Positions 6,722-11,693 of a stretch of DNA of 12,981 nucleotides are shown in pieces (position 1 is the first letter of the stretch; each line of letters begins with the position of its first letter). The notes under the pieces are model-generated. The model did no database searches and was not told the DNA's origin. It saw nothing but the letters and a program-made list of their open reading frames with translations. Source of the DNA: Candidatus Thorarchaeota archaeon (GTDB taxonomy: Archaea > Asgardarchaeota > Thorarchaeia > Thorarchaeales > Thorarchaeaceae); NCBI GenBank assembly GCA_048884785.1, contig JBHLQM010000002.1, forward strand, positions 19,963 through 32,943. Direction: 5' to 3'. The position numbers were made by a program, and so were the translations under genes.

Positions 6722-6749
6722 CGCCCGATTTGAAAAGAGAAATCGGGCG
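6722..6749 (-). terminator. Perfect 10-bp GC-rich stem-loop 3' of the iscU fusion (terminator or mRNA 3' stabiliser)
   Basis: CGCCCGATTT (6722-6731) and AAATCGGGCG (6740-6749) with an 8-nt loop, 12 nt after the iscU stop. There is no U-tract after the stem. Confidence 0.55.
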
Positions 6750-6761
6750 GTCACTGTGGTT

Positions 6762-7538
6762 TCATTCGATGATTAGTACTGCATCGGCAAAGAGCTCGTA
6801 ATCTTCATCCTCATCGAGATTACGGATTAGTACCTTCTCTACGTCTTCTTCTCCTCTAATCTCAAGCAGTCGCGATTGATAGAGAATTTTTATTGAGGAG
6901 TTTTGGAGTTCATTCATTAGTTCTTCAGTTGTGACTATCTCTCTCTCTGGTGTCAAGAGTATGACTCTGTCGGTGACATCTGTGAGTTCTAATGCTGCAT
7001 CTATTGATTCATCGCCCGTGTGCAACACAAGAGTCCGTTTCTCCCTGAAGTCCTCAGGATTCATCGTCGAAAGGTATACACCTCGATCAAGATATTCATC
7101 TTGGCCTACCACACATGCCGCTTCTTCCGTACTCGACTCCTCATCTTCGGTGAGCTCTCCACGACCTTTGCGATAATTCTTGACAGCATCATGCAAGGCA
7201 TCTGCGGCAAGATTCGAGCAGTGCATCTTGATCGGGGGTAATCCATCAAGTTCGTCTGCAACATCTTGTCGCGTCAGCTTCATCGCATCTTCAAGGTTCA
7301 TTCCAATGACCATTTCAGTGGTCATGCTTGTCGTCGCTATGGCTGAACCACATCCGAATGTTCGGAATTTCGCGTCGGTTATTTTGTCATCTTTAATTCT
7401 GATATACATCTCCATGATGTCACCGCAGGTGGGATTGCCCACTCTTCCGTATGCAACATCATCGCCCTCAAGAGTGCCCACATTTCTTGGGTTCCTGAAG
7501 TGGTCTAGTACTTTCTCGCTATACTTTGTGCTCTTCAT
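6762..7538 (-). CDS. iscU: Fe-S cluster scaffold IscU/NifU-N fused to a degenerate thioredoxin-reductase-like NAD(P)H-binding domain
   Basis: aa 1-122: YSEKVLDHFRNPRNVG, NPTC38GD40, FGC63GSAIA, LPPIKMH106C107. An acidic linker follows, then aa 143-258 align by eye with the TrxR middle domain. Confidence 0.93.
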   Translation of the reverse strand: MKSTKYSEKVLDHFRNPRNVGTLEGDDVAYGRVGNPTCGDIMEMYIRIKDDKITDAKFRTFGCGSAIATTSMTTEMVIGMNLEDAMKLTRQDVADELDGLPPIKMHCSNLAADALHDAVKNYRKGRGELTEDEESSTEEAACVVGQDEYLDRGVYLSTMNPEDFREKRTLVLHTGDESIDAALELTDVTDRVILLTPEREIVTTEELMNELQNSSIKILYQSRLLEIRGEEDVEKVLIRNLDEDEDYELFADAVLIIE

Positions 7539-7540
7539 TA

Positions 7541-8716
7541 TTACGCCCCCTTTCTGGGTGAATATATTGGTGATAGTTCCCTGAGCCGTTCAACAATTCC
7601 AGGAATCTCCGCAATGACTGCATCGATGTCCTCATCAGTGTTGAATCGTCCCGTTGTAATCTGAAGTGAACCATGAGCTTCCTCGTGAAGCAGTCCGGTC
7701 GCAATCAGTGTATGTGATGGTTCAAGAGTCTTAGATGTGCAGGCAGATCCAGTAGAGATTGCAATATTCTTGTCTTTAAATGAGAGGAGAATTGATTCAC
7801 CCTCAATCCCATCGAATCTAACATGTGTGTTGCTTGGTAGACGTTCGGTTCTATGTCCATTTAGATGGCTATCAGCCACGTTGTCAAGGATTTCCCGTAT
7901 TAGCTTGTCACGCCACGCCGTGAATTTCCTCATTTCTTCAGGCATTTCTCTCATCATGATTTCAGCCGCAGTTGCCATACCCACTATTGAAGCCACATCT
8001 TCCGTTCCCGACCGCAAACCTCTCTCCTGTCCCCCACCCAGAAGCATTGGATTGACTCGAAACTTCTTCTGCATATAAAGGACGCCAAGGCCTCTCGGAC
8101 CATAGATGTCGTTTGAAGATAATGTCATCAGGTTGATATTGTCACGCTTCACATCGATAGAAACGAGACCTTCAGCGGCCACGGCATCGGTATGAAACGC
8201 AATGTCTCTCTCGCCCAATATTTTGCCTATCTCATGTATTGGCTGAACTGTACCAATCTCATTACTCGCATATCCAATTGATACCAATATAGTATCATCG
8301 CGAATTCTACTCTCAAGTTTGCTTAGCCTCACTCTTCCATATTGGTCGACAGGTACCTTTGAGACCTCGAATCCGTTTTGCGTGAGGTATTTCGCCAAGT
8401 TGTGGATAGAGATATGGTCCACTTCTGAAATGATGATATGTTTTCCCTTGCCCTTATTTTTCATAGCATAACCAATTAACGCGAGATTACTAGCCTCTGT
8501 GGCTCCCGAGGTGAAGACAATTTCATCCGGGTCCGCATTGATGAATTGTGCGATCTTCTTTCTGCTCTGTTCTAACGCGTCAGTAGCAATGTCTCCCACT
8601 TTGTGAAGAGAAGAAGCATTCCCGAACTTCTCATGGAAGAACGGTATCATTGCATCTACGACCCGCTGATCAACGGGCTTTGCAGATTGATAGTCTAGGT
8701 AGATTTGCTTCTCCAA
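7541..8716 (-). CDS. iscS: Group I cysteine desulfurase-like protein (IscS/NifS), variant lacking the PLP lysine
   Basis: YLDY, FGNASSLH, FTSGATE, NEIGT, GGGQERGLRSGT and STGSACTS motifs are present. The PLP motif reads SSNDIYGP rather than SxHKxYGP. Likely start is TTG 8716 after SD GAGGGTGA; the ORF track gives 8737. Confidence 0.93.
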   Translation of the reverse strand: MEKQIYLDYQSAKPVDQRVVDAMIPFFHEKFGNASSLHKVGDIATDALEQSRKKIAQFINADPDEIVFTSGATEASNLALIGYAMKNKGKGKHIIISEVDHISIHNLAKYLTQNGFEVSKVPVDQYGRVRLSKLESRIRDDTILVSIGYASNEIGTVQPIHEIGKILGERDIAFHTDAVAAEGLVSIDVKRDNINLMTLSSNDIYGPRGLGVLYMQKKFRVNPMLLGGGQERGLRSGTEDVASIVGMATAAEIMMREMPEEMRKFTAWRDKLIREILDNVADSHLNGHRTERLPSNTHVRFDGIEGESILLSFKDKNIAISTGSACTSKTLEPSHTLIATGLLHEEAHGSLQITTGRFNTDEDIDAVIAEIPGIVERLRELSPIYSPRKGA

Positions 8717-8727
8717 TAATCTCACCC

Positions 8728-9081
8728 TCAGAACCACATTGTGGTATCTGCTTCTAGGGCTAGGTCATTCAATGTTGCTGCGCCCACTATTTTGAAGTCT
8801 GGATCGAGTTCTACCTTGTCCCACCCCAGCATTTGCTTGGACGCCTCGCAAACGTAAACTGGGATTCCCATTTCTACGGTCTTTTTTAGCATCTGCGCAA
8901 CACTTGGGAAGTTCCCAATCTTGATTTTCTCTGCTTCCCCTGCCTTGAGAATCCTTAGACCTTGTCCTAAGTAATACACCTTTGCTTCAATATCCATGGC
9001 CTTGGCACTCTGGGCAAGGACCAAAGGTGAATACTGTCGTTCAGGATCATCACTTGTCTGAACATATAGAATCGAACTCAT
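8728..9081 (-). CDS. DsrE/TusD-family sulfur relay protein
   Basis: 117 aa with the DsrE pattern 'AKVYYLGQGLRIL...GIPVYVC78EAS...GAATLNDLALEADTTMWF' and a single Cys. SD GGAGTGA is upstream. Confidence 0.88.
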   Translation of the reverse strand: MSSILYVQTSDDPERQYSPLVLAQSAKAMDIEAKVYYLGQGLRILKAGEAEKIKIGNFPSVAQMLKKTVEMGIPVYVCEASKQMLGWDKVELDPDFKIVGAATLNDLALEADTTMWF

Positions 9082-9090
9082 TTCTATCTT

Positions 9091-9345
9091 TCACTCCTTT
9101 CTTTTTATTAGAAATCTTTGAACGCCGTCCTGCCTTTTCTCATAGCTGATGATTTCGTGACCCGTCCGCTTGGCGAATCTCTTTATGTCCTCCTCAGCAG
9201 CAGGGTCATCTGCTAGGAGTTCAAGGACCTGACCAGGAGCAAGCTTATCCATTGCTTCTCTGGTTTGGAAAAGTGGCTGTGGGCAATATAGACCTACACA
9301 GTCAAGCGTTTCATCGGGCATTTCTTTCATCTCCGGCTCATCCAA
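9091..9345 (-). CDS. tusA: TusA/SirA-family sulfurtransferase (persulfide carrier)
   Basis: 'LDCVGLYCPQP' (CPxP motif) and 'GQVLELLADDPAAEEDI'. The real start is probably ATG 9330 or 9321 rather than TTG 9345. Confidence 0.93.
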   Translation of the reverse strand: MDEPEMKEMPDETLDCVGLYCPQPLFQTREAMDKLAPGQVLELLADDPAAEEDIKRFAKRTGHEIISYEKRQDGVQRFLIKRKE

Positions 9346-9368
9346 CCGCTCGTCTTTGTACTTTACAA

Positions 9369-9392
9369 TAGTTAACTACTTATAACTTTATG
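9369..9392 (-). promoter_or_regulatory. Candidate BRE/TATA promoter of the tusA operon with an adjacent 10-bp palindrome
   Basis: Minus strand reads cataaagTTATAAgTAGTTAACTAtt: TTATAA at 9380-9385 after a purine-rich stretch, and the palindrome TAGTTAACTA at 9369-9378. Confidence 0.6.
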
Positions 9393-9450: not shown

Positions 9451-10569
9451 TTAGCGAAAATTCTGGGGCATTGCAAACTCGAAGTACTTGGCCACGACTG
9501 TGTCAAATTCAGTATATTTTGATGGCTGTACCGTGTCCTCTGCAGTAAAACCATAACTCTGCTCAAACCTGTTCAATATCATTGCTAGGAGATTCTTTGT
9601 TAGGTCTGTGCTTTCTTTTGCGATTAGAATCCCGTAGGTGAATATTCCTTCGCATACACTGAGCTCAAGGTTCCCAACCAATATTCTCTCAATTTCACCA
9701 CTACCTAGAGAATGCTTTACATAATGTCTTATTCCAGTGAAAAAGGCGGAGAGAATTTCCGTTTCATTGTTCTGATGATGCGATGCGAAATTGTAATGAT
9801 AGAGCGGAAGTCCTCCATTTCTCTCAATGATATATAACTCCTCTATTACGTGAGTCGCCATGAAGAGAATAGTTGGATGCTTCTGAAAGAGAATTATCAA
9901 TAAAACAAAAAACAAAGCGATTACACTTAGAAACACTGATTGATTTAGGATAAGTCCGAGATCAACTGAAATGGCTTGTCTGAATGGTTGAAGAAGCAAT
10001 ATCGTAGGCAGACATGTTACTATTATCCAAAACAATATTCGTGTTGAGATATCCTCTTGTGCTGAAACTCTAAGGCGATAGAATATCCTAAGCGCAAGTG
10101 GCACTGCCGACAAAATTGAAACAAAAAAGAGAATCCCTCTGATTATCTCGAAAAGAAATGAAAAAGAGCTCAGCCAGCTAGTACCAGTCCAAACTATCTG
10201 AAATGATTCCGGATGATAAAGCCCTACTATTAATCCGCCAGCCATGAGAAACGAGATGTTGGTCAAGATTGACCGTTTATTATCCTTCACGTTCTCCATT
10301 GCCGCAATCATGAACGCCAGAGCAAGATATCCAAAGGGGATTAGGAGGTATTGAGAAATCATGACTTCCAATACGAATCGCTGATCACCAAGAATTGCCT
10401 GAATGAAGAAGGCGGAGCTCCATATTGATATGTAGAAGAAGAATGAGGTTGTGTATTTGAAGAAGCGCGTTCCAATATCACGGTACAGTTTCTCGTTAAT
10501 CCATGTTGCATATAGTGACAATCCAATTAGAGCTGAAGAGGATCCTAGCAGGAGGATATCAACGGTCAT
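9451..10569 (-). CDS. Membrane protein, about 7 TM helices plus C-terminal longin-like domain (Asgard type)
   Basis: About seven hydrophobic segments over the first ~230 aa. The soluble tail 'IEELYIIERNGGLPLYHYNF...ILSAFFTGIRHYVKHSLGSGEIERILVGN...ILNRFEQSY...FDTVVAKYF' has the beta-beta-alpha-beta-beta-beta-alpha-alpha longin pattern. Confidence 0.75.
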   Translation of the reverse strand: MTVDILLLGSSSALIGLSLYATWINEKLYRDIGTRFFKYTTSFFFYISIWSSAFFIQAILGDQRFVLEVMISQYLLIPFGYLALAFMIAAMENVKDNKRSILTNISFLMAGGLIVGLYHPESFQIVWTGTSWLSSFSFLFEIIRGILFFVSILSAVPLALRIFYRLRVSAQEDISTRILFWIIVTCLPTILLLQPFRQAISVDLGLILNQSVFLSVIALFFVLLIILFQKHPTILFMATHVIEELYIIERNGGLPLYHYNFASHHQNNETEILSAFFTGIRHYVKHSLGSGEIERILVGNLELSVCEGIFTYGILIAKESTDLTKNLLAMILNRFEQSYGFTAEDTVQPSKYTEFDTVVAKYFEFAMPQNFR

Positions 10570-11693
10570 GATTTTTTCTCTCCCGCCTTGGTGGCGTGGT
10601 TATGAATAGCAAACTGGAAATAGTTCCTCATGATGGCATCGAAATCCTCGCTTTCTTGATACATCATCGTATTATGAGATTGCTCAAAGAGAGCCAATGA
10701 TTTGACCAGTATTCTTCTAAGGAGTTCGGATCCCTTTTTTGTGACAAGCAGTCCGTAAAGCTGGTCCCCCTCACAAGCTAAGACTTCATTATCTTGTACC
10801 TTGATGCTTCGCACCTCTCCTGGCTCATCCAAAGCTTCATGGAAAACATGTCGAATGCTATCATGAGCTATGGATATACTGAGAGAATCTGCATTAGAAT
10901 CATCAGGATGCAATTGGAATCGATAAACTGTGTTCTGAGTTGCCTTGGAAACGAACTGAATCTCTCTAATGTCATGGCTTGAAGTAAAGAATATTGTTGG
11001 GTATAAACGAAGCAACCTAGCTATGGTTCCAGTGAGCCCTGCAAGTAAAACGAGGAACATGTAGTAAGCGGCACTTATTGGTGATAAAGCAAATTCTGTG
11101 GAATTAATTATAATCATATAGAGTCCGTAGAGCAACAAGATTGATGCAAATCCAAGGAAGAGGATTCTGCTCTGAGCACGGTAGGCTTCGGATTTGCGAA
11201 TCCTCACCCAAACTCGATATACCAGAGGTCCCATCACTGCTAATAGAAATACGAATTGAAGAACAGACAGTGCAATAACTATTGGTCCATAATGTTGAAC
11301 CCATCGGGTTCCAGCCCAGAGAATTTGGTATTCCCCGGGAAGGAATCTACTAGCAATTAAAGCGCCAGAAATCAAAAAGGCCCCATTTATCACGGAATCA
11401 TTTGGCTCCTTTGCATATTCTGACGCATGTATCAATAATGCCAAGGCAAGGAGCCCAAATGATGCAAGAATAGACTGTCCAGTATTCACTAAATCTTGAT
11501 ACTCTGCAGAGCTAAAGAGGCTAGGAAAGAAATACGCTGCAATCATAATTGTCAAGCTAGCACATGCAAGCGTCGCATACATGAAGAACTCTGTTCCCAG
11601 TTCTTTATACGAGCCATAGGAGGTTCTCGTGGCGTGCAAGCCTAGTACAATGCAGATAGTGACGATAGACACTCCATATGGGTCCATATTCAC
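10566..11693 (-). CDS. Membrane protein, about 7 TM helices plus C-terminal longin-like domain (paralog of 9451..10569)
   Basis: Same architecture. Shared motifs: YKELGTEFFMY/YRDIGTRFFKY, QILWAGTRW/QIVWTGTSW, YPTIFF/HPTILF, CEG..YG.L, FEQS, FD....YF. Start is GTG 11693 or ATG 11687. Confidence 0.72.
   Translation of the reverse strand: MNMDPYGVSIVTICIVLGLHATRTSYGSYKELGTEFFMYATLACASLTIMIAAYFFPSLFSSAEYQDLVNTGQSILASFGLLALALLIHASEYAKEPNDSVINGAFLISGALIASRFLPGEYQILWAGTRWVQHYGPIVIALSVLQFVFLLAVMGPLVYRVWVRIRKSEAYRAQSRILFLGFASILLLYGLYMIIINSTEFALSPISAAYYMFLVLLAGLTGTIARLLRLYPTIFFTSSHDIREIQFVSKATQNTVYRFQLHPDDSNADSLSISIAHDSIRHVFHEALDEPGEVRSIKVQDNEVLACEGDQLYGLLVTKKGSELLRRILVKSLALFEQSHNTMMYQESEDFDAIMRNYFQFAIHNHATKAGEKKS

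Follow-up and report, generated by a model that had tools for sequence, protein, structure and literature searches.

The closest described relatives of the system considered here are small iron-sulfur (Fe-S) cluster assemblies made of a scaffold, IscU, and a partner of the cysteine desulfurase family, IscS. In Archaeoglobus fulgidus, according to the passage of PMC7585200 that cites Pagnier 2015 and Yamanaka 2013, IscS has no desulfurase activity and carries aspartate in place of lysine; one of its cysteines ligates the IscU-bound [2Fe-2S] cluster (PMC7585200; PMC13066941). A 2026 review described the minimal Fe-S (MIS) system without a sulfur carrier and with an unclear electron donor, and the sulfur source has long been an open question for anaerobic archaea that have an inactive IscS or none. 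Thermococcus kodakarensis can replace its desulfurase by elemental sulfur (S0) or polysulfide, not by sulfide (PMC12442378), and in sulfur-oxidation cascades the DsrE3 and TusA proteins take up sulfur from polysulfide or thiosulfonate and hand it from one conserved cysteine to another (PMC11094781). The present analysis concerns a stretch of 12,981 nucleotides (the window) from contig JBHLQM010000002.1 of a Candidatus Thorarchaeota archaeon, whose assembly (158 contigs, 3.6 Mb) is 91% complete. Within the window, tusA and dsrE stand directly before genes for a lysine-less IscS and its IscU. Linkage to tusA, dsrE or both recurs throughout the clade to which the IscS belongs, and a persulfide relay from the two carriers into IscS-IscU is the most likely mechanism, with about an even chance of being right.

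The coding features are as follows.

9091 to 9345, minus strand: tusA, 84 residues from TTG 9345 or 79 residues from ATG 9330; Cys21 codon at 9285-9283
8728 to 9081, minus strand: dsrE, 117 residues, DsrE3-like; Cys78 codon at 8850-8848
7541 to 8737, minus strand: iscS/misS, 398 residues from GTG 8737, more likely 391 residues from TTG 8716
8110-8108 and 7741-7739, minus strand: iscS codons for Asp210 and loop Cys333, respectively
6762 to 7538, minus strand: iscU, full gene, scaffold domain plus a tail resembling thioredoxin reductase (TrxR)
7164 to 7538, minus strand: iscU scaffold domain, residues 1-125, with C38, D40, C63, H106 and C107
6762 to 7163, minus strand: acidic linker and stripped TrxR NADPH-subdomain, IscU residues 126-258

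The genes run in the order tusA-dsrE-iscS-iscU with intergenic gaps of 9, 11 and 2 nt, and a purine-rich site (GGAG, GGTGA and GGGGG) lies in each case shortly 5' of the start codon, as the initial annotation had described in proposing four co-oriented genes with Shine-Dalgarno-like sites. The spacing of 2-11 nt alone suggests a single transcript. ATG 9330 is the likelier start of tusA because relatives' promoters point there, and TTG 8716 that of iscS, since it coincides with the start of the relatives' proteins and of the A. fulgidus protein.

The IscS has the type I (IscS/NifS) class-V aminotransferase fold (PF00266, E 2e-72; TIGR03402, 464 bits). Where normal enzymes have S-[GA]-H-K it has Ser207-Ser208-Asn209-Asp210 (SSND), Asp replacing the lysine that forms the Schiff base with pyridoxal phosphate (PLP). 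Its best match in the PDB is A. fulgidus IscS2 (4EB5, 4EB7 and 4HVK; E 2e-135), with SSNDIYGP identical; 4R5F is a D-to-K revertant (the D199K variant) of that protein. When 63 SSND-type sequences were compared with 113 lysine-type (Lys-type) sequences, only three positions differed systematically, namely Gln187 to Ala, His209 to Asn and Lys210 to Asp. All three lie in the PLP pocket and are replaced in all 63 SSND members, so the loss appears to have been targeted and the rest of the protein kept. Loop Cys333 (GSACTS) is invariant in the IscS alignment and, by analogy, is the likely counterpart of the loop cysteine that ligates the IscU cluster in A. fulgidus. The missing desulfurase residues of the initial annotation are thus borne out, but the Lys-to-Asp protein is not new: it is of an already known type, that of A. 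fulgidus IscS2, which has been solved and was published as PLP-free and inactive. Since the protein is of this type and its pocket residues are replaced, a relay would not be expected to start from cysteine by the usual chemistry. An SSND IscS that desulfurates cysteine in some unorthodox way, for example with non-covalent PLP, and loads TusA as usual would agree with the full conservation of the fold and loop cysteine; the replacement of three pocket residues in every SSND member compared and the inactivity reported for A. fulgidus IscS in that passage of PMC7585200 make it very improbable.

Evidence on the carrier linkage comes from the neighbourhoods of about 170 IscS loci, taken in four samples, with flanks extending only as far as the locus ends. 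In the host's own phylum, the best IscS match was taken in each of 30 Asgard loci, the nearest belonging to the host's genus and the farthest to other families; 28/30 have tusA directly upstream in the same orientation, with dsrE between tusA and iscS in 22 of these 28, and the other two loci are truncated by a contig or locus end. Among 80 species genomes of mixed origin, nine IscS lack the lysine, their hosts being Thorarchaeota, Promethearchaeota, Bathyarchaeales and three Actinomycetota. A tusA stands upstream of seven, accompanied in five cases by dsrE; of the other two, one is cut upstream of iscS and one has dsrE on a contig of 2 kb. Neither tusA nor dsrE lies in the flanks of any of the 71 Lys-type loci of this sample. 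A small-genome archaeal phylum (genomes of about 1 Mb), reached through a locus labelled Methanosarcinales (L060), has only Lys-type IscS and therefore served as a control, and no carrier was found at its 30 Lys-type loci. In a further phylum, to which a Methanospirillum locus led, 28 of 30 best matches are SSND-type, all 28 with tusA and/or dsrE upstream, and neither of the two Lys-type loci has carriers. Overall, every uncut SSND-type IscS has tusA and/or dsrE directly upstream, compared with none of about 103 Lys-type loci, although distant TusA forms near Lys-type IscS could escape the hidden Markov models (HMMs) used. These TusA and DsrE HMMs, made for the purpose, found the same two TusA copies in the host genome as Pfam and reproduced the Pfam match in genome G043.

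The linkage also holds in the reverse direction. In the Methanospirillum-reached phylum, 25 of the 30 best DsrE matches lie directly upstream of an SSND-type IscS; of the remaining five, two are cut, one lies at 3.9 kb, and two stand alone in genomes that have a tusA-only cluster. At two SSND loci the IscS is closely related to that of A. fulgidus, scoring 570-575 bits against 4EB5, and in these tusA abuts iscS, with no dsrE. A FastTree phylogeny of 191 IscS sequences united all SSND proteins and two SANS variants of a small-genome Asgard lineage as a single clade (support 0.991) that includes the IscS described here and the kin of the A. fulgidus protein; its sister is an actinobacterial protein with Lys changed to Gln. 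The linkage is spread across archaeal phyla and into some bacteria, and its retention over such depth argues for a shared function. Two expectations of the initial annotation, that SSND-type IscS adjoins tusA and dsrE more often than Lys-type IscS does, and that the gene order is conserved in relatives, therefore hold, the second extending to other phyla.

The functional residues of both carriers are kept. TusA (PF01206, E 6e-26, 90.6 bits against a cut-off of 28.6) has a C21-P-Q-P motif, of which C21, P22 and P24 are invariant among 39 aligned cluster TusAs; it scores below the NCBIfam equivalog cut-off for Escherichia coli TusA (59 vs 78). DsrE (PF02635, E 5e-17, 62.7 bits against a cut-off of 22.7) has Cys78 as its sole cysteine. 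Its nearest solved relative is 3MC3, the DsrE3A trimer SSO1125 of Sulfolobus solfataricus (E 2e-11), with whose cysteine Cys78 aligns; the residue is invariant in 23 cluster DsrEs, whose alignment has 69% mean column identity across phyla. By structure match the protein is closest to DsrE3A, an assignment made with no subgroup phylogeny, and the DsrE2 model gives 25 against a cut-off of 210. Two TusA-DsrE fusion proteins were found, each in one record, and are plausible. A DsrE-IscS "fusion" (P0124) was rejected as a frameshifted read-through artefact, as was P0125 as a carrier fusion, DsrE being joined there to an unrelated domain. Elsewhere in the host genome (C15:49836-51016) a diverged second DsrE of 128 residues and a TusA lie on opposite strands as a separate small sulfur-carrier locus, with a 127-residue membrane open reading frame (ORF) directly upstream of the DsrE on the same strand.

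Contact between IscS and TusA was addressed by structure prediction, as the initial annotation had proposed. A complex of the IscS dimer with TusA scored 0.37, the best of three controls scoring 0.03; at least 90% of contacts are shared between runs, and the predicted local distance difference test (pLDDT) of the partner is at least 80. The score passes a mark that 58 of 80 solved complexes and 2 of 110 mismatched pairs attain, although those attaining it with scores at or below 0.60 comprise only 7 of the 80 solved complexes and both passing mismatches. Because a like complex, 3LVJ, has already been solved, the pass may reflect memory or likeness, and the prediction gives weak support for IscS-TusA binding.

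The same E. coli complex bears on the possibility that sulfur flows in the canonical direction, such that IscS-IscU would take sulfur from sulfide or its own cluster and pass it through Cys333 to TusA and DsrE for transfer RNA thiolation or cofactors. The best solved match of the TusA described here is indeed E. coli TusA complexed with IscS (3LVJ), and the E. coli order from IscS to TusA to TusD is established (PMC13066941). This direction is nevertheless improbable, as there is no known mechanism by which a PLP-free IscS would form a persulfide, the DsrE is DsrE3-like rather than TusD-like, and no tusB, tusC, tusE or mnmA-like gene was found in the window or the inspected clusters.

The preferred mechanism is a persulfide relay running toward the scaffold. 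Sulfane sulfur would be loaded on Cys78 of DsrE, an optional upstream loader, and passed to Cys21 of TusA, which would dock on IscS as in E. coli, donating sulfur instead of accepting it. From TusA the sulfur would move to IscS Cys333 or to IscU, be reduced to sulfide and be built into the cluster. IscS-IscU itself is a minimal MIS-type pair of the A. fulgidus kind, in which IscS, devoid of PLP chemistry, would serve as structural partner of IscU and furnish a fourth cluster ligand through Cys333. The ultimate source may be environmental polysulfide, S0 or thiosulfate, or equally cysteine by way of a stand-alone SufS-type enzyme. The inactive type of the IscS, the specific linkage in both directions, the invariant cysteines of TusA, DsrE and IscS, the two TusA-DsrE fusions and the precedent of S0 or polysulfide use in T. 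kodakarensis were counted in favor of such a relay; from these and related observations we infer which way sulfur flows, how the carriers are ordered, the sulfur source and the reductant.

The scaffold domain of IscU (NifU_N, E 6e-48, residues 5-124; TIGR03419, E 7e-56; PDB matches 7C8M and 4EB5 chain C) retains all cluster ligands, comprising three cysteines and the conserved Asp and His. The tail matches TIGR01292 (E 5e-14, positions 115-232 of 300) and PDB 2ZBW (E 7e-9), and has no CxxC, GxGxxA or flavin adenine dinucleotide (FAD) domain; HTGDES replaces GGGNSA, and TPEREIV replaces HRRDxxR. With nucleotide and redox motifs lost, an active reductase was rejected for this protein, and the tail is a relic rather than an enzyme of the thioredoxin reductase family. 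IscU with a stripped tail occurs in at least 179 clusters at 90% identity, the named ones nearly all Thorarchaeota, and a stripped TrxR relic fused to IscU is also found in Loki, Actinomycetota and other loci. Two SSND clusters (L177:167-1486 and L178:162-1493) have a complete TrxR-like flavoprotein fused to IscU, with FAD and NADPH dinucleotide motifs intact and no CxxC, and in five related clusters (L202, L206, L207, L212 and L216) a canonical TrxR (CATC) lies directly upstream of tusA and opens the cluster. A reductant is needed for S0 and not for free sulfide, and the recurring TrxR module was therefore counted for a sulfane-sulfur feed; the fit is suggestive, and the module could also serve reductive cluster coupling. 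In one Promethearchaeota locus (L046:2333-4732) an 800-residue persulfide-reductase-like protein, with Pyr_redox_2, dimerisation, two rhodanese and TusA domains, is encoded directly downstream of iscS-iscU. In the small-genome archaeal phylum, four IscU ORFs of about 500 residues (L127, L133, L145 and L149) are split by an insert of some 370 residues that follows the first cluster cysteine; in both that were read (L127 and L133) it ends in HNC and is intein-like.

The remaining Fe-S genes of the host genome provide a further setting. A second lysine-less IscS-IscU pair is present at C17:20617-22957, preceded by a 173-residue helix-turn-helix/Cys-rich ORF with no Pfam match. The motif in its IscS is DAHH. 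In 11 relatives the orthologous motif begins with DAH or DGH and ends in H, L, R or V; these proteins retain the Gln and His and form a separate Thorarchaeal clade (support 1.0). Thus the lysine has been lost twice, with only one of the lineages carrier-linked. SufB/SmsB persists only as a 95-residue C-terminal relic (C62:15948-16157; locus L121:1513-1800). Within the family, 14 of 24 genomes encode an intact SufB (PF01458); two further genomes of the host's genus (92-93% complete) and five other genera gave no match. With SufB a relic or not found in the genus, no scaffolds besides the two IscS-IscU pairs could be recognised there. The genome also encodes a SufS-family cysteine desulfurase that keeps the lysine (SAHK; C49:25303-26538, C-terminus masked by N), with no sufE, sufU or sufBCD alongside it at that locus; given this enzyme, cysteine could be the ultimate sulfur source.

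Several observations weigh against a carrier-fed relay. dsrE is absent from 6/28 Asgard clusters and 8/28 clusters of the Methanospirillum-reached phylum. Neither TusA nor DsrE was found among the nearby genes examined at the C17 pair or its relatives' orthologues, so lysine loss alone does not demand adjacent carriers. The single SSND clade points to one old inherited linkage rather than many independent events, and the locus counts are not independent trials. The motif losses in the IscU tail mean that it cannot supply electrons here, and the low IscS-TusA score counts in the same direction. Lastly, the A. fulgidus IscS-IscU complex is said to have been isolated from E. coli with its cluster and without carriers.

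Some of these points would suit free sulfide as the feed for IscS-IscU, with TusA and DsrE as co-regulated neighbors that buffer or detoxify sulfane sulfur or feed thiolations of transfer RNA, molybdopterin or thiamine. The carrier-free second pair and the optional dsrE both favor this account, as do the sulfide-dependent Fe-S assembly documented in Methanococcus maripaludis and the statement in the 2026 review that MIS can use sulfide. It is harder to reconcile with a tusA/dsrE subfamily that occurs almost only beside SSND IscS, and the reverse, across phyla, where a shared task is hard to avoid; the 2-11 nt gaps suggesting one transcript and the recurrence of reductase modules in the clusters likewise tell against it. 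Overall it is rather unlikely. Persulfide delivery by the carriers is retained as the preferred mechanism, and the reversed-flow scheme of the initial annotation survives in part: the operon, its conserved order and the SSND-specific adjacency stand, whereas the IscS is not new, the SufS-type enzyme tells against a feed that must bypass cysteine, the C17 pair has no carriers and dsrE is often missing. A more specific version is tentatively considered possible, in which the locus would encode a desulfurase-independent Fe-S line running from polysulfide or S0 through Cys78 of the DsrE3-like protein and TusA to the loop Cys of an IscS that is free of PLP and sits on IscU, the original reductant being a TrxR-type module; together with the second lysine-less pair it would constitute the genus's only Fe-S machineries.

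Candidate control elements flank the genes.

9379 to 9386, minus strand: TATA box GTTATAAG, upstream of tusA, read from the sequence
9363 to 9375, minus strand: operator-like half-palindrome TTAACTATTGTAA, family consensus TTAACnATnGTTAA, just 3' of the TATA box
6722 to 6749, minus strand: hairpin CGCCCGATTT / AAATCGGGCG after the iscU stop, with a 10-bp stem and 8-nt loop
6704-6701, minus strand: run of four T following the hairpin
C12:7685, C20:9929, C28:34718, C49:2713 and C66:4491, same genome: further copies of TTAACnATnGTTAA

The TATA promoter and the hairpin had both been proposed earlier. The promoter is upheld by conservation in orthologous promoters, with (A/G)TTATAAG at the equivalent position 5' of tusA in about 20 relatives' loci. 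The hairpin is real and only modestly unusual (-22.5 kcal/mol, z -1.9), with 9 of 200 shuffles folding equally well. One or two copies of the half-palindrome are found in most Thorarchaeal tusA promoters, where flanking DNA is unconserved, and the palindrome has five perfect copies elsewhere in the genome against about one expected. A sulfur regulon was considered and rejected: the other copies adjoin unrelated genes (transporters, an iron permease and secreted proteins), and therefore no regulon is claimed. A conserved operator-like palindrome overlapping the promoter would be in keeping with a module that repairs or senses clusters or sulfane sulfur and takes no part in de novo assembly, as would the finding that Methanosarcina acetivorans tolerates loss of one IscSU pair. 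Such a role is quite improbable, given that SufB is a relic or was not found in the genus, leaving the IscS-IscU pairs as the only recognisable scaffolds, and that IscU keeps every cluster ligand. Directly upstream of the operon (9451-11693, minus strand) lie two overlapping genes for paralogous multi-pass membrane proteins of 375 and 372 residues, which have no Pfam match and are syntenic in three close relatives. A downstream GNAT gene was rejected as a core member, being kept in only six relatives.

A full-text literature search, outside whose scope most subscription papers lie, so that a prior description is possible, found no paper tying TusA or DsrE to a lysine-less IscS or to MIS, and the statement in the initial annotation that no account of the four-part system was known stands to that extent. 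As far as the searched literature shows, the link of dedicated carriers to an A. fulgidus-type MIS pair is new; the second lysine-less clade, the SufB decay, the SufS presence, the single-clade result and the TrxR series are also put forward as new. The conserved link offers a testable idea of how "dead" IscS-IscU pairs are supplied with sulfur. As it joins such pairs, clade-wide, to TusA, usually to DsrE and often to a TrxR module, the question can be put to concrete small, expressible proteins. It also bears on the ancestral minimal system as it was before cysteine desulfurases took over, and on Asgard Fe-S metabolism.

In comparison with known systems, the locus is nearest to A. fulgidus IscS2-IscU, with which it shares SSND with Asp for Lys, the loop cysteine and the adjacent IscU, and whose close kin also have tusA directly upstream. 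It differs in the TrxR-like tail of IscU and the presence of dsrE, and the published work covers IscS-IscU alone, no carriers being described in the papers found. The two-gene core is that of MIS (MisS-MisU), and no HscAB chaperones, Fdx or IscA were found in the window; the SSND clade goes beyond the published definition with a sulfur carrier or two and, in many cases, a reductase module. Like the E. coli IscS-TusA-TusBCD-TusE-MnmA relay, the locus encodes a CPxP TusA and a protein of the DsrE/TusD family together with IscS. It departs from that relay in its DsrE3-like DsrE and in an IscS that, having no lysine, would not be expected to form persulfide from cysteine; TusB, TusC, TusE and MnmA were not found in the window or inspected clusters, the rest of the genome not having been searched, and the flow is probably reversed. 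The DsrE3/TusA cascades of sulfur oxidisers (DsrE3A-TusA of Metallosphaera cuprina, DsrE3B/C-TusA of sHdr, and SSO1125) include the nearest solved DsrE, 3MC3, but feed dissimilatory sulfur oxidation rather than an Fe-S scaffold, and no shdr or dsr genes were found in the window. Finally, the route from SufS through SufE or SufU to SufBCD uses unrelated carrier families (SufE/SufU as opposed to TusA/DsrE), and the scaffold here is IscU with a dead IscS; the logic is the same, in that a small persulfide carrier stands between sulfur source and scaffold.

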